Positions 8,401 through 58,710 of a DNA stretch of 64,000 bases are shown here, in pieces. This DNA comes from Saccostrea cucullata (taxonomy: Eukaryota). The notes under the pieces were generated by a model, which saw only the letters and a program-made list of their open reading frames with translations, did no database searches and was not told where the DNA came from. Location of the stretch: positions 186,001-250,000 of the forward strand of contig NW_026936003.1 in assembly GCF_032062105.1 (NCBI RefSeq). The letters run 5' to 3'. Each line of letters opens with the position of its first letter. Positions within the stretch are counted from its first letter, which is position 1. The position numbers and the translations under genes were made by a program.

Positions 8401-10580
8401 GACGATTGATAATAATTATTAACACAATACAAATCTAGCATTCGATCTATCCACTGAATGTTTTTTTTAACAAAATACATGTATTGAGCTGTGGTGCAGT
8501 TTATTTCAAAATATGTGGGAATCAAAATATCAGCAAAAGAATAATATGAATTAATAGAGCATATAAAGCAATGCTTTATCAGCTGGAACTTGTATGAATT
8601 TATTAAATTCTTTAAGCATTTTTTTATTTTCTAAAGGCAGAGAAACATAAGAAAAGCATTCAAATATTCAAATGTTGTTAAAGAAAAGTTTTTGACCAAA
8701 TATTATAGCTTTTATCGCCAGTTATTTAAAATTTTTGACTTTAACTTCCTTCAACACTGTTTAAAGAATACATATACTCTTTAATTTGTTCTGGTGTACA
8801 GATAATGTCCTTAATATCTATCTAAGCATTCTAATGAACAAATGCCTCCTCATTGTAAACTGGGTTTGAGGCACTGGCCAAGACGAACTTTAACCAGATA
8901 AAAAAAAATGAACAACCTTAAAGACTTTTAAGCCATTTATGAAATATTGAATGTCTTTCAGCTGAAACTGCAGATATGTAGCTCAATGATATATTCTTAT
9001 TAATTATCGTTTTGTATTAAAATAGATTTATTGACTTATTGTATGGTACAATAAAAAGAGGTCATTTATCCAAAAGAGCAATGGCAATGAAAACACATTT
9101 ATTGTATCATATATAAATGACGAAAAATCTGTGCATAGAGCCATAAAAAATGTTGGATAATTATTTTTTTAATAATAACCATGACAAAGATTTCATGTAT
9201 TTATGATCTCATCTTAAAAGCACCTGACTTTCACCTCTATCGACAATTGTCAAGACAGAAGAATAATAAACGACTTCCTATCTATGAATGATTTTGTATA
9301 AGGCCGGAGTCTAACTCACGATACATGTATTGCTTTGATGGAATAAACTCTGTGACTTTCTTAGGAATGCATGCAATATAAAGTAATTTATCACGTTTCC
9401 GTCATAAAATAACATATGTGGTGATCAATAAGATTGCACTTGGCAGTATCAGTTGTGACTATTCATTTTGGGATAGTTTTGTTGCCATTTTTAATATTGG
9501 TTTTGTCATAAAGACACTATCTTAACGCACATATAGTGTTAAGTGGAATATAATTGCTGATTATTTTCAAATCACCTTGAAGAGCTCGTTATAAAAAAAA
9601 AACTTTATGCTTGCTATTTGTATCAAGATTTATAAATATTTTTTTGGTTGATTTTTTTTAAATACCATGCAGTGTACTAAGAGAAATTTGTCAATAGTAG
9701 CGGTCATATAGGCTTTCATTAAAATATTGAACAGCTATTTGCCATTGATGCTACATGTTTATGATAGGAGGGAAATAAGAGAAAGATAAACCGTATTTAT
9801 GCTGTTTGGCAATCTCCCCGAAAATATAACAGTAACAAAAAGTAAAGGAATAAGAATGGTCATTTATTCAAACAAGTGCAATAAATGACAAACAGTAAAA
9901 ATACATACAATCAAATTAAAAGGACTAGGGACAAAAATATTATGCTATGAAACCGCAAGGTCGGTGCACGATTCTGACTAGAAAAAGAAACAAAAAATAC
10001 TATTGACAACAATTAAGCACCTGTGTTAAAACTAAAAAACGTCCCTGACTCTCAATTGTAAAAATTGTTAATCCAAAAAACATCTATCTAAAAAATGTCA
10101 GCATATATACATGTACAACAAAAAGACAATATGGGGCGTCATCTGCCACCGTAACAAGGTAGCATTGTAATACCGGCGCAAGAAGAAAAAGAAGCTCATG
10201 CTGGCTTGTTACCGCCCCCATTCAACAACATCATCATAGACAAAACAAAAATTAAATGTCACACCATTTTCTTGCTGACAATTACTATAAGGATCAAATG
10301 AAAGTGTAACACAAAATCAAAATACGTGAAAGGACAATACTTTAGAAGTTAAGGTTTTACTTGAGCCCCTGTCTCAAGAAAAACTACTAACATTAACCAT
10401 ACTTAGAGCCCCTGGGCCCGTTTCACAAAGCCTACTTAGGACTAAGTTATATCTTAGGAAAGAACTTTTTCCTAAGTTCATTACTTATCCGTTTCACTAA
10501 CCTCGTCTTATCTTAGGATATTCCTAAGTTATGTCGTAACTTTAGGAAAGGTAAATCGATGTCTTAAGATCAAACTAAAT

Positions 10581-11612
10581 ATGGCGGCTGCTTATGTTAC
10601 TATAAACCATAGGAATCTCTTTCGACGAGAAAGAATATTTCGCGACAGAAATGATCCAATGGATTATATGGACGATGATGAGATTATCTCAAAGTTTAGA
10701 CTTCCTCGCCATTTGATTCAGAGTATATGTGGGGAGATCGGTAACGATATCAGGAGGCCTACAAGAAGATCACACTCACTTCCACCATCCCTCCAAGTCA
10801 TGGTTGCTTTGCGGTTTTTCGCCACAGGGAGTTTTCAAACAGTTACTGCTGACTTGCATGGTATAAGTAAAGCAAGCATATCAAGAATTGTTAGGGATGT
10901 GTCTGAATCCCTAGTAAAAATCAGTCCAAGATATATAAAAATGCCCACTGATGATACTGCAATTACTAATACTATGTTCAATTTCTCAAGAATAAGTGGC
11001 TTTCCGAATGTCATTGGTGCAATAGACGGAACACATATTGGAATTAAGTCTCCAAATTTTGAAGAAAATGTCTTCGTGAACAGGAAAAATTATCATTCAA
11101 TTAACACCATGGCTGTGTGTGATGCCAATTTAAAATTTCTAAATGTAGTAGCAAAATGGCCAGGGTCATCACATGACTCATTTGTTTGGAACAATTCTAC
11201 ACTCTGTCAAATTTTAGAAAATAAGATAATATCAAGAGGGTGGCTATTAGGTGACAGTGGTTATCCCCTTAAACCATATTTACTCACACCTGTTCTAAAC
11301 CCAACCACCGGTAAAGAAAATGCCTACAATACGGCTCATATGAGAACAAGAAACGTCATTGAAAGATGCTTTGGTGTATGGAAAATGCGATTTCGTTGTG
11401 TGGACACATCAGGTGGTACACTTCAATTCTCACCTAAAAGAACCTGCAATATTATAGTTGCAACTGCAGTTCTACATAATATATGCATTGACAATAGAGT
11501 CCCAAACCCAGTTGGAAGAGCCGTTGTTAATGACGGAAATGACAATGTGTATCGTGGGACATTGAACGACGGATCAGAAGTTAGAAGACGATTGATTGAT
11601 GCTAGGTTTTAA
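10581..11612 (+). CDS. Harbinger DDE transposase (HARBI1-like, DDE_Tnp_4), 343 aa, intact
   Basis: ALRFFATGSFQ..DLHGISKASISR HTH; catalytic motifs GAIDGTHI, WPGSSHDS, LLGDSGY, RNVIERCFGVWKMRF; VLHNIC. Confidence 0.95.
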   Translation: MAAAYVTINHRNLFRRERIFRDRNDPMDYMDDDEIISKFRLPRHLIQSICGEIGNDIRRPTRRSHSLPPSLQVMVALRFFATGSFQTVTADLHGISKASISRIVRDVSESLVKISPRYIKMPTDDTAITNTMFNFSRISGFPNVIGAIDGTHIGIKSPNFEENVFVNRKNYHSINTMAVCDANLKFLNVVAKWPGSSHDSFVWNNSTLCQILENKIISRGWLLGDSGYPLKPYLLTPVLNPTTGKENAYNTAHMRTRNVIERCFGVWKMRFRCVDTSGGTLQFSPKRTCNIIVATAVLHNICIDNRVPNPVGRAVVNDGNDNVYRGTLNDGSEVRRRLIDARF

Positions 11613-11717
11613 ATAACAATATCTTATATTCTTATATGTACATCAACTCATATAGAGTAACCTGTGACAAGTATTGTGTGCAAAGTAAATAAGAATAAAT
11701 AGATATAAAGTAAATAT

Positions 11718-13351
11718 TTATTGTTGAGAAGAAATAGTGGCATTGGAAATAATGCCCAGCTGGCAGAGTTTTATGCTGTGTTTTTCCTGCTCTAGCTGTA
11801 GTCGTGTCCTTTCTATAGTTAGCCTTTGTTCCTCGACATTTAGTCTTTTAATTTCCACATCAAGTCTCTTCTTTTCTATATCCAGTCGCTCCTTTTCAAT
11901 ATCAATCAAGTCCAGCGAATGTGATTTAATATCTATCTTACGTTTCTTTGCTGTTGATAAATGAACAGAAATTATATATATTTATATGCATATACATGTA
12001 AATCCTCACAAGTGAGTACATGCACAATGAAATGACGTTAAAATATAATTTTAAATTTAAAAAAAAATAGCTTTTATTTAAAAATAAAATAAAAATGATA
12101 ATACTAATCAATAATGTAATAACATTCTATAGCATACTGTATATGTAATTATTTTTTTATAATACCCCTTCCCTCCTTACAGAATAGAAGACGAATACAT
12201 ATTTACCGCTCACTGTAGAAGTCTGTCTGTTTGAAGATGTAGATGAATCTATAGAATCCGTTGATCCATCAAGTGACTGGTCGGTCGCTGGGGTGATCAG
12301 TGTCCCCTTTCCTGTCATACCATTAGACTCCTTAGACTCCTCTAGAAATTATATTAACCACACATTTATACCAAGTTTATGAATAAATTACATGTATATT
12401 TAAACGATATATCTGATTATTCTATTGACTGCTTGTATACTTATAAAAAAAATAGGTACACTTCATAGGCGTGGGAACCGGGGGGGGGGGGGGGGCTAGG
12501 GGGGGGGGGGGGGGGGGCTTAGTCCCCCACTTTTTTCCAAATATATACTTAGTATAGACATTAAACATATCTTCGTAAGCTTAGCCCCCCCCCACTTTCC
12601 ACAGATACGTCTTAGTATAGGTTAAAAATGGGGAAAGTGGTGGTGTTTGTTAGAAAATTGTTGGTACTGGAGTTCGAACCTTATCCCCCCCCCCTTTTCC
12701 CTTTTTTTTTTTTTTATATTTTTTTGGGTGGGGAGCCATTCAGTTTCAGTTGGGGCCACTATTAATTACCAAAAATTCCTTTGTTAAGCAAAAAAGAAAA
12801 AAAAAAAAACAGTCATCAGATTTTTTGTAAGGGACACAAACATATAGTAGCTTTGTTTTATACTGCCAGTAGTTATCTATGTATCGGCAAAATTATTGGG
12901 GGTGGAGTGGGTGGCCATGATCTTATTAATTTAGAAGAAACCAACTTTATCCAGAATTACCTTCAAGAGTGTCAATGCCCCCATCAACTCCAGATAATGC
13001 AGTTTCTCCAATAATGGACTGTATTTTGTCCTCCATTGGGGTCACGCTGCAATCCGCTGGCAGTTGACCGCCACCAGTCCTCACTTGCTCGCGCTTTAAT
13101 TTTGAAATTTTTTTCTTTGTCTCACTACATAGAACACTCCATTTCTTTTTTAGTTCATCTGCTGTACGTAAATGAGAAGTATTTACAGCATTAACTTTCT
13201 CACAGATTAAGTCCCATTCTCCCTTTTTCGCCTGATTTGTCACAGATGAATTCTGTCTGGAGAATATCACGTTCTTCCTTTTCTCCACTTCTTCAGTCAA
13301 TATAGAAATTTCTGCAGTTGAAAAATTTGGGTTCCTCTTTGGTCGAGCCAT
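11718..13351 (-). CDS. Harbinger Myb/SANT-like DNA-binding protein (NAIF1-like), 3 exons: 13351-12961, 12341-12207, 11950-11718 (252 aa)
   Basis: N-terminus RNPNFSTAEISILTEEV...W..ICEKVNAV...RTADELKKKW...RTGGG. GT-AG phase-1 introns join the exons in frame (759 nt). C-terminal coiled coil (IEKERLDIEKKRL). Confidence 0.85.
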
Positions 13352-16293
13352 TATGATTTTGTGGGCGGGAAAGCATGTATACTTTTAAGCACGGACTGTT
13401 TACATGGACTAGACAATGCAATGCACTCATTCATGACGAAATGGAAGACACTTTAACTACTGACTGGAGTGTTCGATTTAGGTTGCCGAAACCAAAAATA
13501 TTTGTTTTCCAGTACTTTGTAATTAGATAAAATGTTTTTATTAGTGTTTTTAACACTTTTCCCCATCGTTTCTTCTACCCACCAAGACATGTACATAATA
13601 ATTGTGTAAGAGTTGGAAGTACAAATCAATTTACGTGCATGAAATGTACGATTGATCGTTGATACTATGTGACTTTTCTGTGCACGTACATGTGTGTGTT
13701 TAACATACATGTTGTAACAATACACCTATTTAAGAAAAACAAATCTCATATTACAAAGAGACTGCCTATTAATTTCTGCATACAAATTAATTTTTACCTC
13801 ACAATTTTTTGGTGAGGGGATTTTGGGGGAGAGGTGAAATCAATTAGCTCGTAAAGGTTATATATGAATATTTTAAGATATGACTTAGGAAAAAAATAAG
13901 ATAAGAAAGTTTTGTGAAACAGCTATGACAAAACTTACGAACATCCTAAGTTATAACTTAGGCATATCCTAAGTTGTATCTTAGGAAATATCTTAGGAAA
14001 TCTTTGTGAAACGGGCCCCCTGTCTCTAAGTAACAATGTCATATTAAGGATTACCTTAAGCCCCTGTCTTAAGGTAAAAACGAGTTTTTGTGGCAAAAAC
14101 ACCTGAAGTCCCTGTCTCCAGATAATCTTAATACGGGGTAATAGAGATTGTTCTATCTGACGTATCCGTATAAGTATCCGTATCCGTATCCGTATCGAGA
14201 TATGAAAGGCATCTCGATCCCGATGTCTAAACAATCTTGTTACATTTCATTCGTTTCATGTTTGATTTTTAACCTCATTCACTAAAAAATGATATGTAGT
14301 GTGATATTTTTAATAATAAAAACATATCAGTTGCTATACACGCCTTATGCATCATGTTTTTTGGGGGAGAGGGGGAGGGGGTAAAACTTTAAAAATAAAA
14401 TTAGAAAAACACTTGCTTGCATGATTTTAATTATTTAAATGTGTAGAAATTTGTTCGAAAATCTCTCTCTCTCTCTCTCTCTCATTCTTTCTCTCTCTTA
14501 GGGTATTCATTCTTCATTCTAAAATTAATATTTACAAGAATTTTACACGACATATCCCCAATATTGTATAATTATATATACAGTTAAACCTCTTTATCTC
14601 AAACTTGTAAATTAAGTACCAGTCCACATAAAAATCAGACAAAACTGTAAAAAAGTGATACATGAAGGTTTTCAGAATTTGATGATTTTCCACTCATAGA
14701 TTTATTTTGAAGTATGAACAATGTTTGTAAAATGAAAAATGTTTTGAGTCATGGTAACCATGGAAACCCGGCCAAAGAAATTTCCTTAGCAACGGGTGGA
14801 TTTTTCAGTGTTGAAGGACAAAAAATCACCTATATTTGAGGCTTAAAATAACACGTAAATACCATGAGAATTATTCTTACTTATGGGTATAATAAAGAGA
14901 CACATTTATTGTGTTCTAATAATGTAATAAAGAATATTTAGGTCTTAAGTCAGTTCTGTGGTAGACATTGGAAGGTACATATGTTTTACAAGTTTTGCTT
15001 ATTCAGCATTTTTTGTGATTTTGGCAATATTCAAGGCCAAATTTTAAAAATGGCCAGATTAATACAGTTGTTGCATGTATCTCACATAAAAGCAGAGGTA
15101 TTTCTCTTTTAGAATTTGAAGTCAAATCCATGGGCTCTTTTGAAAATCGAATCCGTTGCCTAGCAACAAAAATGGGCTTTTTGATGCATAAAATGAGAAA
15201 CAATGTAAAAAGTTTACGGAAAAATCAAATGAACGGTTATTTATGATAAACGAGATACAGATTTTAGAATAGTATAATTAAATTCGGTCTCCCTAGCACA
15301 TTATTGAATATTGCATAATTCTTTATCTCCATAGCAACGGCAGGTTCTCCATAGCAACAAGGCGAAGAAAGGTGATTTTGGTGTGTATTCGTGTAATCTT
15401 ATTAAGGCTTATTCAAAATAAGTCAGAAAAATCCGGTTGAGCAAAATTGACAATGAAATGTTGGTCAATCTTAATTTTTTTTTCGTCTTTAATCAACACA
15501 TGGCAACGATTCCCAGTGCATGGCAACCAATGTACTCTATGCCTCCTGTAAAGAGATTTGACTTTTGGATAAGTGTTCGTCATGGAAATGAATATTAAAT
15601 TAATGTGTTGGTGATTGTATTTGTGGAGAGAGCTGAAAAAATATATCAAATGTTCCATCAATTGTTGTCATGGCAACAACTACATGTGAGTGAATTTAAA
15701 ATGGGGCGATTTAAAAAAACACAGTTTAAAATCTTAAACAGAACTGTGACTGGGCGAATTTAAAACGGGGCAAAATTTCTTGTATGTGTGAACGGGCAAA
15801 AATTATACGATACAAAATTAAGGATGTTTTCCATAGATAATGTTTTAATGTAACTTGTACGATATTGTGGATTAGATTCAAGACACTCATGGTTTCAATG
15901 GCTGCATTTTATTTCCGGAACTGTTTTAATTTCCGATATTTTAAAGTTTTCATCTCTGATATTTTTCAAGCAGTACTTTTCTGCAATGAAAGTAGCTAGG
16001 ATTTAAGATTTTACTCATGAAAAATATTACAGAATAAATCATGAATAAATCATTGAAATCCAAAATAATGAGTTTTTCAATTGACTTTGGGTTATGTTTT
16101 AAACCAAAGAGGCCATGATATTGGGGCGGGGGGGGGGGGGGTAGGTTCGATATTCAGTACCAATTTTTTTTAAACAGCACAACTTTGAATTCCTTATTTT
16201 AAACCTATTCTGCAACATGTCTGTGGAAAGTGGGGGGCTAAACCTACGCAGCAATGTTCAATGTCTATACTAGGAAAAGGTAAAGAAACCTAG

Positions 16294-16324
<31 letters not shown>

Positions 16325-16419
16325 TCCGACGCTTATGTAGATTGGTAACTTTATAACCGTAGACAAAGTAGGGGAATAAAAAAATGCATTTCAACCACTC
16401 TAAGTAATATTCAGCATTA

Positions 16420-18315
16420 CTCAGTAGTGTCCCCACCCCACAAGAACCCCTGACCCTCAGGTCCACACATTTCACAATTCTTGCTCATCATAAATGTTTG
16501 AATAACATCATGGAGTGGATTTCAAAGAAATAATTCATTTTTAGTATATAGTCAAAGACACCCCTCCAACCCCAGCCCTCTATGATACCCCTGTTCCGGG
16601 GGGCTTGGAGTTCACAGTTCTGGAAGAACGATCATAGCTATATCATAACTATATGTCTGTAGTCAGTTTGTTAAATACCTGAGAGCAAAGAAGAAGATTA
16701 ATTATCAAAGATTTATTGCAATTTCACCATTTGATGATTAGAGCCCCACCCTAAGTAACACCAGAAATCCTGGTCCTTGCGCCATGAAATTCACAACCTG
16801 ATCCTTTGGCCATGAAATTCACAATTTTCAAAGAGGCACTCTTCCTCATTTTAACTACACATGTAGTTAGTTTAATACTGTAACAATTGATGGGTTTGAG
16901 TATAGTGTATTCTAATTATGCAAGTCGGGCCTTGAGATCTCTGATTGGCTGAAGCTGATCATGTGACCTTAAACCAAGGTATATAAGCAAGCGCAGCTAA
17001 GCTGCAGGGTTCTTTTAAGTCCAAGCAACGGAGAGAAGAAGACCGATATAAGGTTAGTTGGGTGGATTGCCTAAGATTGAGGCTTGCCACAATTATTTGA
17101 CAATACTAGGTGGATTGCCTATCGGTAAAGGCTTGCCACAATATATTTGTAGTATTGGTTTGTGACTAACCAGTTAGAGGCCGACCATAGAGGCAAGTCA
17201 ACCCTCTGAGGCTTTTTAGAATAGTGCAAGTCTCTGATCGCAGTGGATTACTGTGCGTCCTGAATAAGGACAATTCAGTATCTTCTGTTGTCAGAGGCTG
17301 ACCACTAGGGGATTGGACTTAGCGCCGTGACTGACACTACGAGCCTGAATAAGGCAATATTGGTGTCAGTCCGGTGCTATTGGGCGAACCAGTGATTTTG
17401 TAAATATAAGGCCGACAATCAAGTGTGATTTTCCCCTAAGTAAGGGAAGGGCCCTATTTGTATATATTTGCAGGCCAATATTTTTATCTAATCATTTTTA
17501 AGAGGAAAATTATTTATTGTAAATATTATCTTTACCGAGATCCTGGAATCAACCAGGTACGACCCCTAAACACGTTACAATACCAAGGGACAGAGAAGAA
17601 GATTTTCCATTTTAAAAATGCATGTTTACTATATAATCAAAAGAGCCCTGCACCCTAACACTAGAACTCCTGACCCTGGGGCCATGAAGTTCACGATTTT
17701 AGATGAGGCACCCTTCCTCATCATAACTATGTATTTTTCAAAGAATTAATGCATGTTAACTATATAATCATTTAAGCCCCGTCCTAACACCAGAACCCCT
17801 GTCCAAAGGCCATGGAATTCACTACTGTAGAACAGGAATTCTTTCTCATCGTAACTATGTACTTAATTAATTTTACCCAGGAGCAGAAAAGAAGATTTTC
17901 AAAGAAATAGTGTATTTTTACTATATAATCTATTTAGCCCAGCCCTAGCATATAGATCACCTGACCTTGGGGCAAACAATTTTACAATTTTGGTACAGTG
18001 TAGAGGATTCAATGCTTATTACAATCATTCCACAGTTTCACTGCTTGATGTCTAGAAGTAAAAAAGAATTTAAAAAACTGCATTAATTTTAGTAGTTTTG
18101 GTCCCACCCCTCAGGCCCCAGGGACCCTGAAAATTACAATTTTGTGTTCCTCTTTTACCCATAAATGGGTTATTTCAAATTTGTTTGAAATTGGTTCAGT
18201 AGTTCCAGAGAAGAAGCTAAAAATGTTCAAATGTTTACGACCGCCGAATGACGTACGACGACGAACGAACAGAGATAGCAATAGGTCACCTGAAAGACTC
18301 GGGTGGCCTGAAATT
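16420..18315. repeat. Satellite-containing Helentron-associated (HINE/CvA-like) repeat, split by a solo LTR
   Basis: Degenerate ~150-170-bp tandem units (ccccaccctaa..ccagaacccctgacc...catgaaattcacaattt...gaagaagattttc); end with gacg microsatellite and hairpin aataggtcacctgaaagactcgggtggcctgaaa. Confidence 0.7.
16879..17579 (+). mobile_element. Solo LTR (701 bp), Ty3/Gypsy-type
   Basis: TGTAAC...GTTACA termini; ATAC 4-bp TSD at 16875-16878 and 17580-17583; gattgg and tatataag promoter-like boxes. The empty site restores the host satellite unit. Confidence 0.88.
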
Positions 18316-19402
18316 CTCAGAGGCACATCTCCTTTTTAAAGTGCAGTTTTAAGTTTGAACTCAGATATGCAATGATGGAAATAAAGGCATACAGAAACCA
18401 CTTCTGGTAAATACAGACCCTTAGTAAGCAATGTCGGAGATGGGGTGGGTGTTACAACCTAATATTTTCAGTTTGCCCCCCCCCCCCCCCCCCCCCCCCC
18501 GCTTCTTACACGGCCATAGGAAAAAACAATCATCGTTGAAGGAATTCTCAAAAGACAGTAGAATGTTTTTAATACGAAGACATCACACTTACGCCTGTAC
18601 ATGTAGCACAGGGAAAGATATTAATATAAGTATTATTGCAACTTGTATAAGTATGTATTGAATTATAAATATGTTTTTATTTTTTGAACATGAAATAAAT
18701 TTATTTAAAATTTTATTTCCAGCTGTTTGGCAAGCAAAAAAAAATTGTCAGAAAGTGATCCTGCAGATATCCAAGAAATACAAAAAAATGTCGGAAATTG
18801 AAATAAATTTGTCGGAATTGAAATTTTAAGCATGTCGGAAATCCTATGCAAAATACTGGAAATTAAATGCAGTGAAAGAAAACATGAATATGAAATGAGC
18901 AAGCACAAAAAATTGTGTACACCTAATAAAACCCTTAACCCTGGTAGTGGGTACGTTCACAATTCTCCCATTGGTTGACATTGGTGGTGTAGTTTACCAA
19001 TGACAAAACATTGGTACCAATGTTTACTATTGGTAACTTTTATTGGTAACCAATTCTGCAGGCCAACCACACCTCTGGCAGATTGGTAACCTAGATTTTT
19101 TCGTTTATTAGTGTCACCCCCAAGATGGCTACCTGGACCGTTCGGCGTTCCTGGTAGCATGAGTGAAGTTTCCTCACTAGTAATAACACTTCAGATGAAT
19201 TCTACTACAATGGGTGCGTTCAGAGTATTTCCATTGGTACCATCACCTGTTTGCCAATGGCAACAATTTGTACCGTTGGTACCATTGGGCCCATATTTAC
19301 TCTGAACGGTTTTTTGGGTACAATTGGTAGGAATCTCACCAATGTTAACAATGGTACCATTGGTGTACCATTGGTTACCATTGGCTTATTATTTAGAAGA
19401 AA

Positions 19403-20536
19403 ATGTCCAACGAAGAAAATATAATAATTGCTTCATGCGTCATTTTACAACAAGAGAGTATGTTTAGAAATATTTTTTTTAGTTCAATGAAGTACTTCTC
19501 CCTTCCAGATTATTTTCTCCTACAAAACTTGCGTAGATCTTCAGATGAAATGACTAGAGTGAGGCATTACTATGAGGTTACTATACCCTCGTATACACTT
19601 GATGAATTTAAAACCCATTTTCGTTTGTCCAGAGACACATTTGAGAGTACGTGCCAGAGATTATCAACAGTTAACGCTTACAACAATCAAAAGGGCCCTG
19701 CCCCTAACCTTGAAAAAGAACTGTTGATGTTTTTGTGGTACTTAGGAAACCTTGAGAGTTTTCGATCTATGGCTGATAGGTTTGGTACATCTAAAGGAAG
19801 TTTTCACGCTAGTGTTACTAGAGTATCCTCCTCCTTGATAAGTGTTATGGCAGAAGTAATTAGATGGCCTTTATCACAAGCAGAACTAAATGAAACATGT
19901 CAAAAATTTGGAGAAAACTGTCAATTTCAAAATGTTGTGGGTGCTTTGGATGGCAGTCACATTCCGATAAAGGCCCCCAAACACCAGCCACAGGCCTACT
20001 ACAATAGAAAGAAATTTTACTCTGTGGTGCTTCTGGCATGCTGCAATTCCAAAATGGAATTTACCTATGTTTGGACAGGAAATCCTGGAAGCACGCATGA
20101 CGCAACAGTAATGCGAATGTCAGATCTTTTTCAAAAGAGTGATGAAAAGATTCCTGTTGGCTATGTCATATTGGGGGATTCAGCCTTTCCATTACTTCAG
20201 TGGCTCATAACACCTTTTCGGAATTGTGGCAACCTAACTGAGCAACAACGAAAATTTAATAAGGAGCACAGCCGTAGCAGACAAGTCATCGAAAGATCGT
20301 TTGGCTTATTAAAGTGTCGGTTTAGGAGACTTTTGCGATTTGAGTCTTCAAAAATTAAAATCATAGTAGAGTCTATACTTGCTGCTTGTGTTTTACATAA
20401 CTTACGTATTTCAGACACAGACTTTATCGAAGTACCAGATGAATTTGAAGCTTGTTATGACATGCCACCTGCCCATGACGGTCATCAACTCCAAGGAATT
20501 CAAACCAGACAACAGATGATGAACCAATTGATATGA
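19403..20536 (+). CDS. Harbinger DDE transposase, 377 aa, intact
   Basis: FKTHFRLSRDTF; LWYLGNLESFRSMADRFG; GALDGSHIPI; PGSTHDA; ILGDSAF; RQVIERSFGLLKCRFR; ACVLHN. Confidence 0.95.
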   Translation: MSNEENIIIASCVILQQESMFRNIFFSSMKYFSLPDYFLLQNLRRSSDEMTRVRHYYEVTIPSYTLDEFKTHFRLSRDTFESTCQRLSTVNAYNNQKGPAPNLEKELLMFLWYLGNLESFRSMADRFGTSKGSFHASVTRVSSSLISVMAEVIRWPLSQAELNETCQKFGENCQFQNVVGALDGSHIPIKAPKHQPQAYYNRKKFYSVVLLACCNSKMEFTYVWTGNPGSTHDATVMRMSDLFQKSDEKIPVGYVILGDSAFPLLQWLITPFRNCGNLTEQQRKFNKEHSRSRQVIERSFGLLKCRFRRLLRFESSKIKIIVESILAACVLHNLRISDTDFIEVPDEFEACYDMPPAHDGHQLQGIQTRQQMMNQLI

Positions 20537-20977
20537 ACTATCAATAACATTTTCTACAATTAGTAGACTGTTGATTTTGTTCAATACTTTAATATTATTT
20601 TAATATTCCATGTTCAATGCAAAATATTCAGAACATTAAACATTTTTTTAAACAACTTTATTAATTTTTAAAATAAAAAAATATACAATTTCTTTGTATA
20701 GCTAAAAATAAATACAATTTCTTTGTATAGCTAAATATAAATAAAAAGAGTTTTAAATGTTTAAATTCAAAACATGAAAGACATCTTAATTAGTGTATCT
20801 CAGGATGTCAAAATAATAACAACTTATCCAAAGAAGAGGATGCTTACTTTAACCCTGACTAGTGTTTTCACTTGTGCAGTGATAAGGACTTATTACTGTA
20901 CTCTAATTAGTTTTGTTAATATTCGTCAAGTTATACAGACAAAAAATTTGTAATGTGTGGTGTTGTGTACTCAGTCC

Positions 20978-22650
20978 CTATTTGCCCAATTTTTCAATTA
21001 ATTTTGTTAAGAGTTCTTTATTGCTATTCTGCATATTTTCCATTATGTCGAAGAATTTTTTATCTCTCTCCTCAAAGTATTCTCTCATCTCGTCAATTTT
21101 TCTTTTCTTTGTCTTACATGTAGCTGTAGGAACAGGGGTTGATGGTCTTGAAGTTGAAGCACTGCTGGTGCTTGCATCATCATCTTCCTCAGGTTCATCT
21201 GACTCACGGTCAGCATCATCTTTTCTCAAACCAAAAGAGCTACAAAGAAATAATGGTTTGAACGATGGGTCCCCATCCAGTATACTCTGCATTTCAGTTT
21301 CGTACTTAAATGGTTTAGGGGTTTTATTTCCAGTTTTCTTGCATTCGGACAAAAATTTTCTATAGCCTCTTTTTAATGTGTAGAACTTCTCACGACATTG
21401 ACTGGCAGACGGGGGATTTACTTCATTTTTGGACAGCTCTTTTGATAGTCCCGCCCATATCTTTTTGTTTATGGAAAAAGAATCTGGTGCAACTTTTTTC
21501 TTTTCCTCTAATATATTTAGGAGTTTTCTGGTTGTTGTCAGTTTCCATTCATATCTTGATTTTGATCCTGACTCTTCCCAATCACTATTGTCATCTTGGT
21601 GCATGGGGAATTCTGTTTCACTCGGAGGGACAAGATCTGAGGCTTGATCACTCGGATGAACAAGATCTGAGGTGCTGGCTTGATCACGCGGAAGAACACG
21701 ATCTGAGGTGCTGGCTTGATCACGTGGAAGAACACGATCTGAGGTGCTGGCTTGACAGGATGAGGAGCTACTTTCATTATTATCCTGCATTTCATCATTT
21801 CGGAATAATTCTTGTGGAATGACTACTTCTCCATCAATACAATCAATAAATATTGGATCCTTCGGGGGGTCAGGAGGTAGTAATTTTTCTAATTGATTAG
21901 ATACCACATCAAGATCTAGTAATTTTAAGAAAAGAAAAAAATGTTAATTAATGAATTACCATAAGATCATAAAACCTTAAGTTCTATCAGCATTTTTGAT
22001 TTGTTCAATGCAACAAACTGAGCATAACTCAGTATTATTAATTTTTCATATACTAGGCCTAAAAAGATAATATTTGCATCGTTTATGTGACTATAGTGAG
22101 AAAAATAAATGGGTAAGCATGTTAAGACTATATTTTTGAGACAGATTTCTAAATAATTTTTTAATTAAAAATTGGCTAAAACTGTTTTATTTGTATACAT
22201 CAGAAATAAATAACTGTTTTTGAATATATTTCATTAATATCAGGGTAAAGTATCAATTAAGATTTACTATGATTAATCTACCAAAAAATTTCCAACCTAT
22301 CCGGGTATTCCCGATATATATATAATTTGTTTAAGGAACTGGGAATGAGTTTAAAATGGTTTTTATTCCTTATATGATTATATATATTTGTTTAAGTAAG
22401 CAGTGCAAAGCGCCGCTCACATAGACTAACGTGTAAGAACAGAGGAAATTCCGAATGAAATCTGTTCATTCGTCAACGGTCACTTTATAAGACTATATAG
22501 CAGAAAGTGTGCATACTTACTGTCAGATATATGCTGAATGTTTGAAGCCTTTGTTAATATACGGTAATTTTTTCCTGCAACAACGAGGTTTAAAGGAAAA
22601 AGTTGAGATAAAAAATCTGTCGCTTTAAGCACATATGCCATACCCGCCAT
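20978..22650 (-). CDS. Harbinger Myb/SANT (trihelix/MADF-like) protein, 2 exons: 22650-22521, 21915-20978 (355 aa)
   Basis: W..TTTRKLL...KKIWAGLSKEL...SASQCREKFYTLKRGYRK...TGN..KPFKYETEM domain. Donor gtaagt at 22520 and acceptor ttactag at 21916 splice in frame (1068 nt). 36-bp repeat encodes QASTSDRVLPRD. Confidence 0.85.
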
Positions 22651-23414
22651 TTTTCGTGACGTCATAAAAAAAGTTACCATCGCTAACAGAGCTCTAGTTC
22701 GTCTGCAGAAAAATCTACCTATGGTAAATTTTTTCGGCAAACTTTGGTACCAATGGCATACCAATGGTAAAAAATTCTACCAATGGTAACTTTTGTCAGC
22801 CAACGGTAGTACTCTGAACGCACCCATTATAAGGGAACTGTTATCTCTACATAGTATTCAAACAAATGATCACTTGTTTTGGAAAAAGAATATTACCTGA
22901 AGACAAGTTTTCATATAAAGTTTAGTTATGTCCATAAAAGTAATTTTATTTTGTTTTAGGAATACAATAAACAAACTTCATTGTGAATTTGTTGTTTCTG
23001 GAAAATGGTGAATAACTCAACATTTGCCGTTGGTTACCATTGATTACCATTGGTGACCATTAGTAACCAAGCGTTATCATTATTCACCTTTGACAACCAT
23101 CGGTACAGCCTTTGGTCGTTTTGTCATTGATTTACCAATATATGCTGTTCACAGTTTAAAGGCAACCAATTGTACCATTGTTCAACATTGATGCCAAAGA
23201 CAAGCCAATGGCAAATCGATATTTGTACCAATGGAAGAATTGTGAACGCACCCAATGTTTATCTAGCATATATTGTGTTCATTTGAGATAATTTCCATTT
23301 TTCAAAAGATAAGATATTTATAAGCTTGTATCTTTAACTTGTTGTTGGGAAGCTGACACTTATTCAGTTCCCAAGGAATCTGTAGCTCTGGAGCTTCAAA
23401 CGCTATTACCCAGA

Positions 23415-24432
23415 GAACAGGCCCATAGCAACGCGTATCAAAGTATCGGGAGCAACCTCCAACATCGCTCACCTGAGCACATGGGCTAGGTAAAAACAAA
23501 TCAGCTCAGCACTCAAAAGTTTATTTGGGGAAGGGAGGGGGATGGACTTGAATTTTATACTTCTTGCCACCATATCAATATAAACTAGTGCTAATTGTAA
23601 CGGGGACCGTTACAGATGTTCCCCAAACGCTCCCCAATTCCCTTTTGATGCCATATTCCCTCTAAGCTTCATTAAAGAAGACAAACGCTATGCATTTGAG
23701 ACTTTAACAACGTTTACCCAGAAGTGTACCAAGTTCATTCATATTTTAGCATTGCACGCATGCACATGTGAATGCATGTGTGTAATGACCATGTCATCTT
23801 GTCTAAACAATCTAATTAATGTATTAATGTAAAAACTTTGGGCCAGGAAAGATGAAACTTATGTAGAAGCATCCTCAGGTAGTGTACATTCAAGTTTATT
23901 CAATTCAGGACCCCCGGTGGTAGGGTGGGGCCACAATGGACGACCAACGTTTTAAATAGGAATATATAGGAAAAATCTTCTTAATAACAGCAAAGCCATG
24001 ATTGGTCATGTTTATATGGAAGCATCCTCAGTAGTGTAGATTCAAGTTTGTTCAAATCATGACCCCCGGGGGTACAGCCACAATGGATGATCAAAGTTTT
24101 ACATAGGAATATATAGGAAAAATATATAAAAATCTTGATTGGTCTTGTTCAAATGTTAGCATCCTCAGGTAGTTTAGATAAAGATTTGTTAAAATCATGA
24201 CCCCAAGGATTGGGTGGGACCACAAAAGTACATAACTTATTTGGAATAAAGCCACAGTTAGTCAAAAAATATGTAGGCACCCTTAGTTAGTGTAGATTCA
24301 AGTATGCATAGATTCAAGTTTGTTCAAATCCCCCCCTCCTCTTTTAGGATCGGGACTTCTTAGGCATTTACTGAATTGATTTTTCATAGCCACAGTGCTC
24401 AGGTGAGCGATGTGGCCTATGGGCCCCGTGTT
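23415..24432. repeat. Cg170-like oyster satellite units within a HINE-type repeat
   Basis: About four units of gaagcatcctcaggtagtgtagattcaagtttgttcaaatcatgacccc...ggtggggccacaatgg; terminus ctcaggtgagcgatgtggcctatgggccccgtgtt. Confidence 0.75.
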
Positions 24433-24764
24433 ACATGGATGAGTTCGATGTCAATTTTTTGTTTTTGTTGCATAATATTTCCATTTTAAGATATGAACTA
24501 ACCGGATACATGAAGATGACCCTCTAACCATCGTTTGCATAATTTTTGAAATATGTTTGCACTACATGAATGCAAATCTCATCAAACAAAAATAAAGTTT
24601 CTACTTGTGTGACTAGCCATGTTTTAAATTCATTTGTATTTGATCTAGCTTTGGACATCTTGCAATATTTCTTTCAAATGGTGTAAACTTCAATTTTATG
24701 TAAATAACCGTAACTGACTGCGATGCGACTTTTCTTATTTTGATTTATTTTAATGTGCCGCGGC

Positions 24765-24850
24765 GCCCTCATGGAGCAGTGGTTAGAGCGTCTTCACTAG
24801 AGTCACGAAGTAAGGAGCTGATCCTTACGTCGCGGGTTCGAATCTGTGGG
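24765..24850 (+). mobile_element. tRNA-derived SINE head fragment
   Basis: A-box-like tggagcagtggttagagc and B-box gggttcgaatc; no complete cloverleaf. Confidence 0.6.
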
Positions 24851-51165: not shown

Positions 51166-52105
51166 GCACGCTGAAGGATATGTCTCTGGTCGACTGAGCA
51201 AACGAAATGATAATTGTTGGACCAGTAATTTTCAAAATTAAGTTAAAGATAGAAATAAAAACAATAGAAACGCTGATACAAATAACGATATGTGTAGATA
51301 TCATAGATTGATTCCATGTCTTTACAGGATAATAAATGACATAAATAAGCCTTGAAAATGATCGAGGGAAAAAACTTAATTCAAAGAGAGAAAATTTTTT
51401 TAACAAAGTTTATCAAAATCATTCACTCTTCACACATAGATAGTGTGTCAAAATGATCAAACAATTCTTTCAGTAAAAATGATGAATTCACAAAATCGTC
51501 GAAAATTTACAACAAAATACATTATACAATTTTTTTCATATGTTACAGATAACTCTGGGGACTTTATTGAAACAGATCTATTATATCTAGGAAGAACATA
51601 ATTGTATGTTTTGGTACGATGTGTATATAACACTAACAACCAGAAAACAACTGGGGCGGTGATGCGCATAGTTACAAAGTTATTCTCAGTTTTAGTGTTT
51701 ACTCACTTTACCACCCACGTTTTACTTTTAAGGAAAGAACAAAGATAAACTTTATCTGTTTCAAAGGTTTAGATAGATGATAAACTATTTTGGGTTTTAA
51801 AATCGATCAAAATGGCAACAACCAAAATAAAATTTTAAGAGATGGAGTTGGATGATATCAACATTTTTTTCCGAGTTTTCTTTCCTATCTTATCTTTCTT
51901 ACAGAGGAGTATCCAAGACAGGAACAAGTACTTCCTGCCTAAAGATATTGGCTAATTTAGTCATTATCATAAACAGGAACTATTTCCCAAACAAAAATAG
52001 TATATTTCCTTGTGGAATTCTGCTTTGAAAACACATGATTCTAGGATTTCAAACAAAAACCGGCTTCCTTCGGAATCAGACTCTAGAACTTTTTGGGAGA
52101 CTCAG

Positions 52106-54444
52106 ATGGAAGAAGGTGCCGAGTCAAACATCTTAACGTACCCTTCATCAACAGGTAAGATGTTTGCATTTTCTTACATTAACCATCACTCAATTCAGTG
52201 TTAAAGCAAGGTGTTTTGTCACGTTGATAAAACTATATTCTTAATATTGTGGTGAATTATTTTCATTAGGGGAATGGCAATGTGAAAAATGCACCTTCCT
52301 AAATAATCCACTTGAGTCCGTGTGTTCTGTTTGTGGCTTTGAACAAACACAGATGGAGAGTTCCTTTACTTGTCTCTCCTATCCAGGTTCGCTTCCAGTC
52401 GAGGATTTGGAGGAAGATTCTGTTCGGAGAGATTTACCACCACTTCCAGACCTTCCCCCGTCAGGAGCTTCTGGTAACTCACAACAATATGTATTACACA
52501 ATTTTACACGAAAGTTTTTTATTATTTTTTTGTCAGAGAAAGTTTCTTACTATTTCATAACGAAAAGTTATATTTTTTTTTAAAAATTCGTTGTTTCTTT
52601 CTTTTTTTAAATACACAAAGTATTTTTCCTAAAAAAATAAATGCAAATTTTTCTGAATAATTTGGTATGCTGGATACTTTTGTTACAGATACCAAAGTTT
52701 TTATTATTTCATCCCGGTCACAGGATTTGGAACTTTTTTTTTTAAAAAAATGAATTAAAATAAATGAGATAAGTTTTTAAAAAAAATCCATACGCTTGGG
52801 TTAAATTATTGAAAGAGACAAAAATACATTTAGAGAAATAGTCGTATGTAATGTAAAACAATTTTAACAAATAAGAGCACATAAGTGGCTTGGTAAGTGT
52901 GATCCAATTTTAAAATTTTTATTATCCATTCCATTATAGAGTGGTAAACAATGTTTTCATCAAAGAAAATAAAAAAATATAAATTCAAATATTTTTCAAT
53001 AAAACATCTTGAGTACTACTGAAAGAAAATACAAATTTATCAGTGTCACAGTAGGTAAAAAATCAAAATTTTCCGGTGGTTTTCATAAAAACCATAGATA
53101 CCTCTACTTTTGCTTAATTTTATGACAGAATGCGAATACTTAAATGATGAAATTCGTATTATACTCGTTGGAAAGACGGGCTCAGGGAAAAGTGCAACAG
53201 GAAATTCCATTCTTGGCAAGAGAGAGTTTGAATCTGATGTTTCGAATTCAAGCATAACTAAAATCTGCAAACGAGGAACAGCAGCACGGTTTGGTCGGGA
53301 AATTTTAGTGGTTGACACCCCAGGTCTATTTGATACCGGTAAGTACAACATTCATCGAGAACAGAATATATGTGACACACTTCCAATCAGAAACTCCAAA
53401 TTAACAAATTTACTCGAAATCAGATTATTCTCTTTATTTCAAGGTATGACAAATGATGCTATCACGAAGGAGATCTTGAAATGTGTGGGAATAAGTTCAC
53501 CTGGACCACATGCCATTTTGTTAGTGATAGGTATTGGTAGGTTTACGCAGGAGGAAAGGGAAACTGTCGAATTGCTACAAAGGTCATTCGGTCCAAGCAT
53601 GCTAAAATATCTTATTCTCGTTTTCACGAGGAAAGATGATCTTGATCGTGGTCGAAAATCTATACAACAGATACTTAGGGATGCTCCGCCTTCTTTACAA
53701 GATATAATAAGAAATTGTGAAGACAGATTCTTTGCCATCGATAATACAGAAGAAAATATCCATAATATGGACCAACAAGTAAAAGATCTTTTGCAGATGA
53801 TTGAAACCATGGTGAAGAAAAATGGAAATAAATATTACAGCAGTACTATCTTTGATCAGACTGAATTAGTAATCCAGGAACGCGAACGAGAAATTAGGCA
53901 GAAGTATGAAGAACAGAATAGACAAGAACTTAGCAGGATGAAACGAATGATCTCCATGGAGTTCGATCACAAGAATTCACATTTTAGAGAAAGAGAAAGC
54001 GCGCTGCTTGAGAAGCTTGAAAGATTGGAGAGTCAGCAATCGATTGAGAGACAAACAATGCGTGAGAATCTGAGAGCTCTTCAAACAGAAATGGACAATT
54101 TAACCATGGAAGCCAATCCAGAAAGTTTTGATGAGGAAGAAAACTGCAAGCTTTTCAACTTACAGCGAAAGATCCTTGAGGTCAAAAGTCGTCTGGAGGA
54201 TGTCAGACATAAACAAGAGGACATGATGCTCTACGAAGATATAGAAGAGGTTCCGGGTTTGGGATACAGAGATGAAGCGGGACTTAAAAGAGCTCTAAGA
54301 GAAAACGTCCGAGACGAAATTGAACGTGGTGACAAGAACATTCTGAAGAAATTCTGGAAAAATATCAAGGACGCGGGAAAGGGTTTAGTGACTAAATTCA
54401 AAGAAATATTTGAGGTAATTAAAGGGAGGGCAGGCTTCTACTGA
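52106..54444 (+). CDS. GIMAP: NZF-zinc-finger GIMAP/AIG1 GTPase copy 2; exons 52106-52154, 52270-52473, 53129-53338, 53444-54444 (487 aa)
   Basis: MEEGAESN... start; [20 protein letters not shown]; [25 protein letters not shown]. Total 1464 nt in frame; the G1-G3 exon is 210 nt, as in copy 1. Confidence 0.88.
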
Positions 54445-56506
54445 GCCGCTCTCAATATTCATCTTTTCTTGATCAATTGCGAAGACAAAAAATCTGTATA
54501 TATCAATGGTATCGTCAATCTTAAATGCGAAGGTGAGCAGGAACTTCACACAAAACTTTATTTTTATGCAAGATAGTTACAGAAGAGCAGGGTGATTTGT
54601 AAATTGTAAATTTTATGATGTTTGCCATAGATAATGCAAATAACATTGAATATGTTTTATTATTATTATTATTATAGATGTATATATATTAAAGTGTGTT
54701 TTGTTGAGTATAAAATTATGAATTTCCATTTCTATTTGTTTTCTCTGTGAAAACTTTCGAAAGTTAGGTGAGTTGATGTCTTGATAATTCAATCGGAATG
54801 CAAAGAACAAGGTAGGGTATATGTAACGGTCATATCTGGTCCATTACATGATGTAAAAATCAGAACACTGGTAAAATTTTGATAGTTTGTAGTAACATGT
54901 AAGAACTTAAAATGATGTTTGCTTTGAATCAACACTAATCCGGATTCAAAGGTTACATGGAAGCCACTAGAGGGTGCAGAAGTAGGACATTTTCCTCAAT
55001 TCTGGTAGAATTTCATCATATTTGAGATACTTTTCTCTTCAGAAACCATAGAGTACAAGCTTGCCTATGTGAGACTTTTACATGTAAACTGCATCTGATA
55101 CTAGTGTATAAAATATGTAAATTTGGTAGATAGGCAAGTTTGTGCTCTGTGTTTTCCGAAACAAAATGTGCTGTAAAATCAATGAAAATTTGCATAAAAA
55201 TGAAAAATATTCGAAGATTTTCTCACCTCTCTGTGGCCTCTGTGTATTTTAAAACTTGGAACCAATACTCACTTTGTGGCAGGGATGACAAGATGTTTCT
55301 AAAGATAAACTGTTGCATCATTCTGAAAGACACCCAAAATCAGGGGCCAAATACGGGTCTTACCCTATCTTGTCTTTTCGCCAAGCTAGAGGTCATGAGC
55401 AAGCTAAGGAGACCTAATGTGCATGTCAATCACTTGCGTCTGTCTTTGTGTTTAAAGTCAGTGGGTGGGAACTATTGAAATTGACATGGAAGGCTGCTTG
55501 TTATCAAAATCTAAATTTAATTTCACAAACTGTAAAAATAAGGACTCGCTGTTTGTTGGTTACGCTTGGAACAAGGGATAATTTATGCAAATGGAACTTC
55601 GATAGTCCATTATGCAAACTATCTCAAGTTTCCAACTATCGTTGATGCCCTGGCATTACCATTAAACTAAACAATGATTTCTTAAGCAACTTGCTATATT
55701 TTAATGTGTTTTTAATATTAATGAAAGAATATACATGTACATGTATCTGTCTTGAATATTTCTGTAAACGACTTTAAAAGTATTTTTATCTTTAATTTCT
55801 GTGGAATTTTGTGATTTGAGAAAGATAAAAAGAATAAAATATCGCTTGTGTTTAGAAAGAAAACATGAACCAAAATCTATGGTGCATCACAATTTCTGTT
55901 ACATGTATGTATCAATTGATGATGATACATGTATTAGGCCATCTTTGAAAAATTGTTTGCTTGTCTACTCCCGACTGATTGGACAAAAAAAAACTCTTAA
56001 AACAGTTTAAACCTTTTAAACCTCCAGGAAAATTTTTAAGCATTCCGAAAGTTTGCATCTAGCTCATAATTTACTACATATATTTTAATTGTATTAAATT
56101 TCCAATTTTAACATATTTTGGATATTAAATTTTTGAGGGAACCCTCCCAACCTACCGACCTTTTTATCTCGAGGGAGGAAAAATAAACAGTATTCTGGAG
56201 GTGGTCTAAAATAAATCAATCTTATAAATCCAGATATGAACGTGTACCACGATCAGGGCAATAACATAGACCCTGGAAACTCAGGCGTCAAAGAGGAGTA
56301 TAAACATCAGCTATTGACCAATAAACCAGGGTTTTAAGCCTCTAATCAGGTATACGAAGTAATCTGTAGTCAAATTGTATTGATTGAAATTTGAAAAATC
56401 AGAAAAATACTCTTGCGTACAGAATTATTTGAAAGAGATTAATACCATTAATACAATATTCAATGATATAGGAATACATGTAATACTTAATAGGAAAAGA
56501 AATTAA

Positions 56507-57009
56507 CAGTATGACATTTAACTCTGGACACGACATAGTCCAGACTTTTTACTACCATTTCTAATTATGATAACCAAAATATTTTTATATCACTTGGTGG
56601 GATTTCTTAGCAGTATTCCAGGGTCTTAAGTTGGACTCAAGAACAGTTCCATGTTTCACAATGTATTGGAGAAAATAATTCATTGTCAATATCCGTGGGA
56701 TTTATCCCATTTGAACAAATTCATGGGAGAAAAAATCCCCTAGGAGAAAATATCCCATCTGACATTTTTTCTCCCATGGGAGAATGGTGGGATAGTTGGT
56801 GGGACTGAAAATCCCACCATTCTCCCATATGATTCTGAGTTTTAGGACTTCATATCTTTAATAGTGGAGATGTTCTTGAGTCCAACTTAAGACCCTGGAA
56901 TACTGCTAAGAAATCCCACCAAGTGATATAAAAATATTTTGGTTATAATAATTAGAAATGGTAGTAAAAAGTCTGGACTATGTCGTGTCCAGAGTTAAAT
57001 GTCGTACTG
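56507..57009. mobile_element. Young TTAA-flanked MITE with ~140-bp near-perfect TIRs
   Basis: TTAA|cagtatgacatttaactctggacacg...caagaaca vs tgttcttgag...ccagagttaaatgtcgtactg|TTAA. Confidence 0.85.
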
Positions 57010-57736
57010 TTAATTGACAATAAGAGGTCACTTTTTCGAATAGTTTAATTTTAGTTGGTCATTAATGTCTATACATACAAGAATCTCAAAATGTGTTGGA
57101 GATTCCAAAGTCCATAATCTTTCATTTATCTGTTTATGTGAAATAACTTGAGTCGAGTTTCATAAAATATAATCCTAAAAGTTAATAGTATACTGCTATT
57201 TTATTTTTTGAACAAAAATGTTGTTTTCAGTTTTGTTAAAGAGTTGTTTACAGATATTTTATGAAGTTTCATTAAAATATTACTATTAATTTAGAATTAC
57301 ATAGACCAAGGTAGAATTTAGTAAAAACAGTGCTTTTTAAAATCATAAATTACATAAAATTTAAATGCAATTGTTCATAAATTTCCATGACATTAGGATT
57401 ATATTGGTGGGCTGTAAAAGAGAAATGTGTAATTTCAACACATGTTGATATGATTAAGAACACAAATTTAAATCAGGAAAGTACGATTTGTAGTGGAATT
57501 CCGTTGAAACCTTATTTTGTACGTATTGAAAATTTTCAAAGTTTTCCTGTCTGAAAATTAAAAAAAAATTCAAAACATCTTTAGTTACTTTATATAACAT
57601 AGCCACAGGTAATGATCATAACCACAACACGGAAATTTTCGAAATTTTGAATTATCCTTCCGTGAAACAACACCACGATTGATCAACTTCTCATTTTGTA
57701 AGCTGATAATATGCTTTTTTGGACAAGAGAGAAATC

Positions 57737-58650: not shown

Positions 58651-58710
<60 letters not shown>

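Follow-up and report, generated by a model that had tools for sequence, protein, structure and literature searches.

In a 64,000-nucleotide stretch of the genome of Saccostrea cucullata (contig NW_026936003.1 of assembly GCF_032062105.1, positions 186,001 to 250,000; 'the window' throughout means this whole stretch), five short hairpins that carry nearly the same loop belong to a single decayed minus-strand retrotransposon of the Ngaro type, which encodes a tyrosine recombinase (YR) and is interrupted by two insertions. The same hairpin recurs, in rows, behind the YR genes of many related families, and its loop, its stems and its placement point to a structure that would be recognised as sense RNA. 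The reading that is favoured here, to which we assign a probability of roughly 0.45, is that the hairpins are predicted, repeated docking sites for the zinc fingers of the element's own Gag protein.

An original prediction had placed five hairpins on the minus strand of the window, and all were found at their positions: hairpin 1 at 14103-14121, hairpin 2 at 14051-14077, hairpin 3 in two separated halves (5' half at 14019-14032, 3' half at 10400-10410), hairpin 4 at 10360-10378, and hairpin 5, with the loop ACAGGGG, at 32788-32812. The string GACAGGGRC is present four times in the window against an expectation of 0.29, a count that none of 100 shuffled sequences reached, and the split hairpin 3 supplies a fifth. 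Hairpin 1 begins 6 nucleotides (nt) past the YR stop codon (TAA, 14130-14128) and hairpin 5 begins 3 nt past the stop of the SGNH hydrolase gene (TAA, 32818-32816), just as had been described; because the SGNH frame of the window copy is broken near its end, this second stop is that of the intact reading. The claim of a near-constant loop stands for ACAGGGG, while the A that ends the loop of hairpin 1 is private to the window copy, since its close copies (L002, L003, L005 and L018) all have G at that position. 'Full stem turnover', in contrast, proved to be too strong a description of the five window hairpins, which have in common a U at -5, a G at -1, a C at +1 and a U at +2; compensatory turnover is real across families only. 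Folded as RNA, the stretch that holds hairpins 1 and 2 gave z -3.0 in the sense orientation versus z -1.7 in antisense, and hairpins 4 and 5, each folded singly, were non-significant (z -0.8 and -0.9).

The blocks at 10.3-14.1 kb and 28-33 kb had been proposed to be parts of one element, and both are colinear on an intact copy of the family (L062), to which window segments 33557-28289, 14145-14017 and 10414-9796 align at 94-98%. The family layout is A1-SGNH-gag-RT/RH-YR-B1-A2-B2, in which RT/RH denotes reverse transcriptase and RNase H, and A and B are repeats. The array had been recognised by removal in silico of a Harbinger DNA transposon, and this transposon was confirmed (10414-14018, in the loop of hairpin 3, with AGG duplicated; Pfam DDE_Tnp_4 and Myb_DNA-bind_5), but a second insertion of 14.1 kb (14144-28288) must be set aside as well. 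Uninterrupted copies do not lack the array: it is carried by L002/L061, by L003/L062 (six hairpins) and by L005/L063 (four hairpins), and the close uninterrupted copies have four to six hairpins each, with ACAGGGG in every loop and with hairpin 3 whole (L061-L063).

The motif was then compared across loci obtained through a YR search of the same genome, in which 150 of 1220 candidates were scored and 80 of these regions were taken at length, and through 29 further loci from metagenome records. From 108 oriented loci, 22 without a located YR stop were left out, and the remainder formed 46 families; L106 was added by hand. A closing G-C pair around a 7-nt loop W-C-A-N-G-R-G defines the hairpin in 19 families ('class 1', five of them from metagenome records), down to 37% YR identity, and the same loop is found in other assemblies (L106, L116, L118, L119, L122 and L123). 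When 'anchors' (the loop and closing pair only, in one copy per family) were counted in class 1, the 11.4 kb that follow YR stops yielded 61 and the 0.72 kb behind ten SGNH stops yielded 5. The coding DNA from gag to YR (48.1 kb) had 3, and there were none in 5.9 kb of SGNH coding DNA, in the remaining 8.9 kb of SGNH-gag spacer, or on the antisense strand of both untranslated zones; families outside class 1 had none in 15.2 kb after YR.

Within 55 distinct class-1 hairpins, loop positions G5 and G7 are invariant and position 4 is G in 44, A in 5, U in 5 and C in 1. The three stem pairs beyond the closing pair (pairs 2-4, 165 cells) comprise 139 Watson-Crick, 21 G-U, no A-C and 5 other combinations, with G-U seen in 13 families and A-C in none; the assertion that G-U pairing works only on the sense strand thus holds across families, and this asymmetry is what indicates that the motif acts as sense RNA. 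Of the 55, 48 are more stable when folded as sense, and 24 have an unpaired base at -5. The stem covariation score among 35 distinct 15-mers was 0.815 versus 0.219 (reached in 0 of 500 shuffles), with controls slid along the sequence at or below 0.315, in a calculation that ignores kinship. The fixed loop, the covarying stems, the sense-only G-U pairs and the confinement to non-coding parts of Ngaro elements together support the suggestion that the hairpins would be a protein-recognised RNA motif.

These same patterns bear on two further explanations. One holds that the array is a neutral by-product of local tandem duplication, and units are indeed duplicated within families (a two-unit duplication in L061/L062, and a 70-nt period in L233); however, loops stay fixed and stems covary down to 37% YR identity while the spacers are unrelated, and the same motif recurs at a second site 4.6 kb away, all of which makes this account highly implausible. 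The other takes the hairpins as DNA sites for the tyrosine recombinase, either as inverted arms round a 7-bp spacer, a geometry similar to that of YR core sites, or as attC-like hairpins on single-stranded cDNA. The cDNA of DIRS-1 is indeed single-stranded (PMC7192593). Against such sites, the arms vary freely while pairing is kept, the ends of the element are A1 and B2 with the array lying elsewhere, and the 21 G-U versus 0 A-C cells argue against both duplex arms and antisense cDNA, so that this possibility, too, can be given very little credence. The original wording, 'RNA (or ssDNA)', is accordingly narrowed, with sense RNA favoured and single-stranded DNA disfavoured in the form of antisense cDNA.

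A genome-wide motif search, which had also been proposed, gave 95 and 170 matches for two 15-nt forms versus 1 and 4 for reversed controls; among 27 genomic sites sampled from the first 30 loci per search, 24 lie in coding Ngaro copies, two in a family that lacks open reading frames (ORFs), and one is chance-like. A looser pattern (297 versus 142 control matches) was discarded as too loose, paired hairpins 916 nt apart (L230-L232) were set aside as a single, uninformative decayed locus with a duplicated SGNH gene, and a 'G-bulge-C' core shared by all lineages, seen by eye only, is not claimed. Rfam (E<=1) returned no family on the arrays of seven copies.

Class 1 forms one side of a branch in FastTree trees of gag (99), SGNH (98) and RT (100), which contain only the loci gathered here and no named Ngaro reference; in the YR tree the grouping needs three changes, two of them from decayed rows, being broken by L139 (proved to carry the motif) and by L159 (a decayed row on a long branch). 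Behind the YR gene of other Ngaro lineages, whether from this genome or from metagenome records, the repeated motifs are different ones, and 21 of 25 of their copies contain at least three repeats of an 11-mer there. Metagenome lineages with their own 3' arrays include L104, L108 and L109; L102, L103, L120 and L128; L105; and L110, and the array of one such lineage has many G-U pairs around a UUAG loop. A second, different array is found between SGNH and gag in 22 of 23 spacers, a count made without a shuffle control and including some arrays that fold weakly; its loops are UUCG in the window and YCUG or ACUG in L067, L072 and L131. Judged from sequence comparison, the motif changes with the lineage of the element and not with the host.

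The arrays can be placed on transcripts with the aid of three raw oligo-dT RNA runs (X20-X22; unstranded, read to about 45%, with about 1000 reads apiece that come from related copies) and assembled contigs. The oligo-dT reads cover L062, array included. Intron 2 (GT-AG; 31853-32502 on the minus strand, ending just 5' of the gag ATG; joint 6560-7349 on L062) is spliced in 13, 5 and 2 raw reads of X20-X22 and in contigs of X6, X1, X2, X4 and X11. Intron 1 (GT-AG; 32571-33500, minus strand; joint 7410-8343 on L062) is spliced in contigs of X1 and X2, where the shorter side measures only 25 nt, and its removal takes the SGNH ORF and hairpin 5 out of the gag mRNA. Because the GT-AG ends lie on the strand of the element, the RNA is sense. 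An 11-nt loose end in two runs fits a joint between a gag donor and an acceptor at the RNase H end; all 22 copies compared need phase 1 at the YR acceptor, and 16 of the 22 have a donor in that phase, which falls at a glycine with at least 90% conservation. YR is therefore likely made by splicing as a fusion to the N-terminal part of Gag ('Gag-N'). The sites for that junction lie at about 31524 and 29284 in the window, where the donor is non-canonical, and at about 6234 and 3989 in L062. The 3' array is present on every isoform, while the intron array (32097-32314, minus strand; UUCG loops; fold z -5.0) is kept only by unspliced RNA that retains intron 2, and as a candidate genome-selection signal the latter would be the likelier of the two.

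Several side observations concern the same transcripts. The use of hairpin loops as 3' splice sites (CAG-G) was considered and rejected, the only joint near hairpin 1 being one with non-canonical ends in six reads of one run. At 31003-30995 of the window, gag contains an in-frame CCC-UUU-CGU with a near-invariant Phe, and RT follows in the +1 frame, often without an early ATG, which makes this a candidate +1 frameshift site by analogy; influenza PA-X uses a comparable one. At the start of B1 (about 10130-10225; L061-L100) lies a conserved long stem with a GGUGGC-type bulge, whose G-rich 5' arm is partly complementary to a C-rich tract just past A2; a priming or template-jump structure is possible there.

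The ORF-less family, which has no SGNH, gag, RT or YR match at E<=0.01 in L242 or L233, retains and multiplies both kinds of array. In L242 (G000:C8128:23400-29800), A1 is followed by an interior of about 4.9 kb, with 13 intron-type hairpins of the L067 kind and 7 class-1 hairpins, and then by B1-A2-B2; L233 has 10 intron-type and 11-12 3'-type hairpins, the latter locus showing the 70-nt period. Parts of the family recur on C12894, C5778, C14164 and C10624, its A repeat has 40 matches with flanks that differ where read, and one of its stem pairs takes G-C, G-U and A-U states. (Members also include L235, L236 and L254, and the interior contains short exon-like stretches.) Both arrays are maintained and enlarged in a family with no ORF left; they do not, then, depend on a stop codon, and the pattern points to a cis signal that would be used in trans.

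This result weighs directly on the idea of a signal coupled to the stop codon, whether for protection from nonsense-mediated decay or for control of termination or readthrough, an association that was implicit in the original prediction. In the window family the first hairpin lies 3-6 nt past both stops, and a spliced intron plus about 6 kb lie downstream of the SGNH stop. Yet the distance from the YR stop to the first hairpin varies from 8 to 245 nt across families, the gag and RT stops have no hairpins behind them (48 kb of coding DNA contained 3), and the array of the ORF-less family is kept and expanded with no stop before it; the tie to the stop is thereby weakened, and a stop-coupled function seems very unlikely.

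How, then, might the arrays be read? We infer three things in succession: that a protein binds the array, that this protein is encoded by the element, and that it is Gag. An element-encoded reader is suggested because the motif varies by lineage within one host, is constant across hosts, is arranged in rows and has been amplified by a parasite without coding capacity. Gag alone among the element proteins has recognisable RNA-binding fingers: eight Cys/His ligands are invariant in 21 of 21 sequences, although Pfam recovers CCCH fingers in only 3-4 of the 21. The G-x-G end of the loop would be what its zinc fingers recognise, and docking on the array would set off assembly of the element's RNA-protein particle. 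Being on every splice form, the 3' array would bring Gag to any RNA of the element. The genome copy would more likely be marked out by the intron 2 array, which only unspliced RNA keeps, and RNAs that retain intron 1 would gain one further site from hairpin 5. According to PMC7599994, HIV-1 nucleocapsid (NC) knuckles bind two guanosines in GGAG, and Moloney murine leukaemia virus (MoMuLV) NC binds UCUG; the invariant G5 and G7 of the class-1 loop echo the former, and several intron-array loops (YCUG, ACUG) resemble the latter. A structure model of Gag (mean pLDDT 74) gave no Foldseek match at E<=0.001 and a best Z of 5.4, and since fold searches found nothing above background, no capsid claim is made.

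A different protein of the element (RT, the Gag-N/YR fusion or SGNH) would produce the same lineage-specific pattern, and two distinct arrays per lineage do suggest two readers. For RT, the array directly precedes B1, at a place to which models assign steps of reverse transcription, and stringent LINE RTs recognise a 3' stem-loop; the RT of DIRS-1, moreover, acts in trans (PMC7192593). For SGNH, hairpin 5 adjoins the gene's own stop, which would permit loading in cis or feedback, and a counterpart within 30 nt of that stop is found in 5 of 10 class-1 families (with the loop 2-28 nt from the stop in all five), but the other five have no SGNH hairpin. Because recognisable RNA-binding fingers occur in Gag only, and many tandem copies suit a multimeric binder, a reader of this kind is regarded as unlikely.

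A rather improbable alternative of another kind would have the array face the host, with CAGG(N) loops recruiting a host SAM-domain protein (of the ZCCHC14/Smaug type) and TENT4 and so protecting or exporting the intron-retaining RNAs that the element requires. The hepatitis B post-transcriptional regulatory element (PRE), located in the 3' portion of every transcript, contains a CAGGU loop together with a bulge (PMC2275152, PMC9282228). Of the class-1 loops, 17 of 55 can be written U-CAGGN-G, a CNGGN pentaloop closed by U-G; the invariant C2 and G5 with a free position 6 fit a C1-G4 pair and a bulged fifth base; and 24 of 55 hairpins have a 5' bulge. In the Smaug recognition element CNGGN0-3, however, the base that precedes CNGG must be canonically paired (PMC4053848), and such a pair is missing in 38 of 55 hairpins, including all five in the window. 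The third G is absent in 11 of 55, and 4 of 19 families never have it although their stems covary; in the corresponding position, the loops of other lineages from this host are not of the CNGG type.

Docking of Gag is nonetheless subject to a series of points that count against it. That 17 of 55 loops do fit the host Smaug/SAM pentaloop rule is one. Class 1 was defined after inspection of the motif, kin share motifs by descent, and once shared descent is allowed for, the 13 family-level cases of G-U amount to about 7 separate events. Since the trees of all four proteins follow the motif, they give no means of telling Gag from the others, and the Gag model matched no known capsid fold. The 3' array cannot select the genome alone, being present on spliced RNAs too; the RNA libraries are unstranded and without a DNA control; and 17+3 poly(A) reads represent a form in which RT, YR and the array are skipped, though it probably stems from a deleted copy. 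As for the ORF-less family, some decayed units show A-C mismatches, the copies are old (83-93%), both ends are seen in one copy only (C8128), and the interior may contain a spliced captured gene.

A wider and still more tentative proposal, on which we would not wager, would give 'SGNH-first' Ngaro elements a two-tag RNA code: a lineage-specific pair of arrays, one in the intron and one at the 3' end, would be read by co-evolving Gag zinc fingers, splicing would separate the genome from the mRNAs for SGNH, Gag/Gag-RT and Gag-N/YR, and parasites without ORFs would exploit the system by multiplying both tags. If this holds, it would be the first RNA-selection signal to be defined in a retrotransposon of the order DIRS.

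The remaining features of the window copy, all on the minus strand, follow the family layout. A 3' remnant of the A1 terminal repeat (33805-33901) is 100% identical to A1 and 98% to A2 of L062, and is followed by the SGNH/GDSL hydrolase ORF, the first of the element (32816-33381; Pfam Lipase_GDSL_2, E 2e-8; frame broken near its end). The gag ORF (30775-31851; broken, 3' end approximate) encodes a basic N-terminus, a helical core and CCCH and C-x2-C-x3-H-x4-C zinc fingers, and is overlapped in the +1 frame by the RT-RNase H ORF (29207-31030; broken, 5' end approximate; Pfam RVT_1 and RT_RNaseH). The YR ORF runs from the conserved splice acceptor up to the larger insertion (28289-29284), beyond which its last codons and stop lie at 14128-14143, uninterrupted in L002, L003, L005 and L018. 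A B1 repeat with AATAAA (9796-10147) matches B1 and B2 of L062; A2 and B2 are missing, and A1 and B1 are kept in part only. The insertion at 14144-28288, a terminal-inverted-repeat element that sits in the last YR codons and contains nested elements, has inverted ends of about 115 nt and duplicates TATTA; its interior includes a 737-nt inverted pair (14636-15372/25655-26391) and a second Harbinger (19397-21943). Elsewhere in the window are a LINE with endonuclease and RT (34267-37172, upstream of the Ngaro element), a palindromic element with 21-nt repeats and 120-nt inverted ends (41302-42101), and a cluster of AIG1/GIMAP GTPase genes (45360-63312).

The assignment to Ngaro follows from split direct repeats together with the lack of a methyltransferase, a trait that sets Ngaro apart from DIRS1 and PAT. 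The arrangement A1...B1-A2-B2, with the internal repeats downstream of YR, was found in 15 of 16 copies examined; the gag, RT/RNase H and YR ORFs are all on the same strand; and no methyltransferase domain was found in L066 or L067, where RNase H ends about 55 amino acids before the end of its ORF and YR overlaps. These are Ngaro features (split repeats, gag, RT/RH, YR, no methyltransferase) according to PMC4157794, PMC9210276 and PMC7192593. Amphibian Ngaro elements (for example, Xenopus DIRS-53_XT) likewise have split repeats, gag, RT/RH, YR and an SGNH hydrolase, but their SGNH is described as lying 3' of YR, whereas in the intact copies here it precedes gag. One locus of the same genome (L098:7019-7615) has the amphibian-type order, with SGNH right after YR and no class-1 array seen after it. 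No YR relative was found in viral contigs.

To our knowledge, tyrosine-recombinase retrotransposons have no protease and no tRNA primer site, and have been the subject of few experiments, so that the arrays bear on how such elements select, package and copy their own RNA. The class of element and the existence of retroelement RNA tags are already known. The class-1 hairpin arrays, the SGNH-first order, the splice map and the Gag-N/YR fusion were not found in the literature searched, most subscription papers, Repbase reports and the original Ngaro papers being outside it: the accessible text of PMC6681497, among other Ngaro/DIRS papers, does not describe such arrays, and that of PMC8547959 and PMC3783388 has no passages on hairpins, splicing or zinc fingers. 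A 15-nt motif with natural variants, lineage alternatives in one genome and a candidate reader would permit direct binding and swap tests, and orthogonal hairpin-reader pairs would be useful RNA tags.

Comparison with known systems begins with the iron-responsive element, in which a six-base CAGUGN loop caps a 5-bp stem with a bulged C beneath it; this element was rejected as a match: the class-1 loop has 7 nt, with U at position 4 in 5 of 55, and the base at -5 is U in 41 and C in 3 of 55. TAR and MS2 hairpins may be similar in geometry. With the hepatitis B PRE stem-loop alpha and the Smaug element, the class-1 hairpins share a CAGG(N) core, a frequent 5' bulge and a 3' site on all transcripts; they differ in having a loop of 7 nt in which CNGG is mostly not closed by a canonical pair, in an unconserved third G, in occurring in 3-12 copies, and in a motif that varies among lineages within one host. 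Retroviral packaging signals such as the GGAG loop of HIV-1 Psi and the UCUG of MoMuLV, finally, resemble the Ngaro arrays in offering multiple short RNA sites that expose G, a Gag with two zinc fingers and an array confined to unspliced RNA, although the class-1 array is 3'-terminal and on all splice forms, the fingers are of the CCCH and C-x2-C-x3-H-x4-C types, and binding by Gag is here a prediction.

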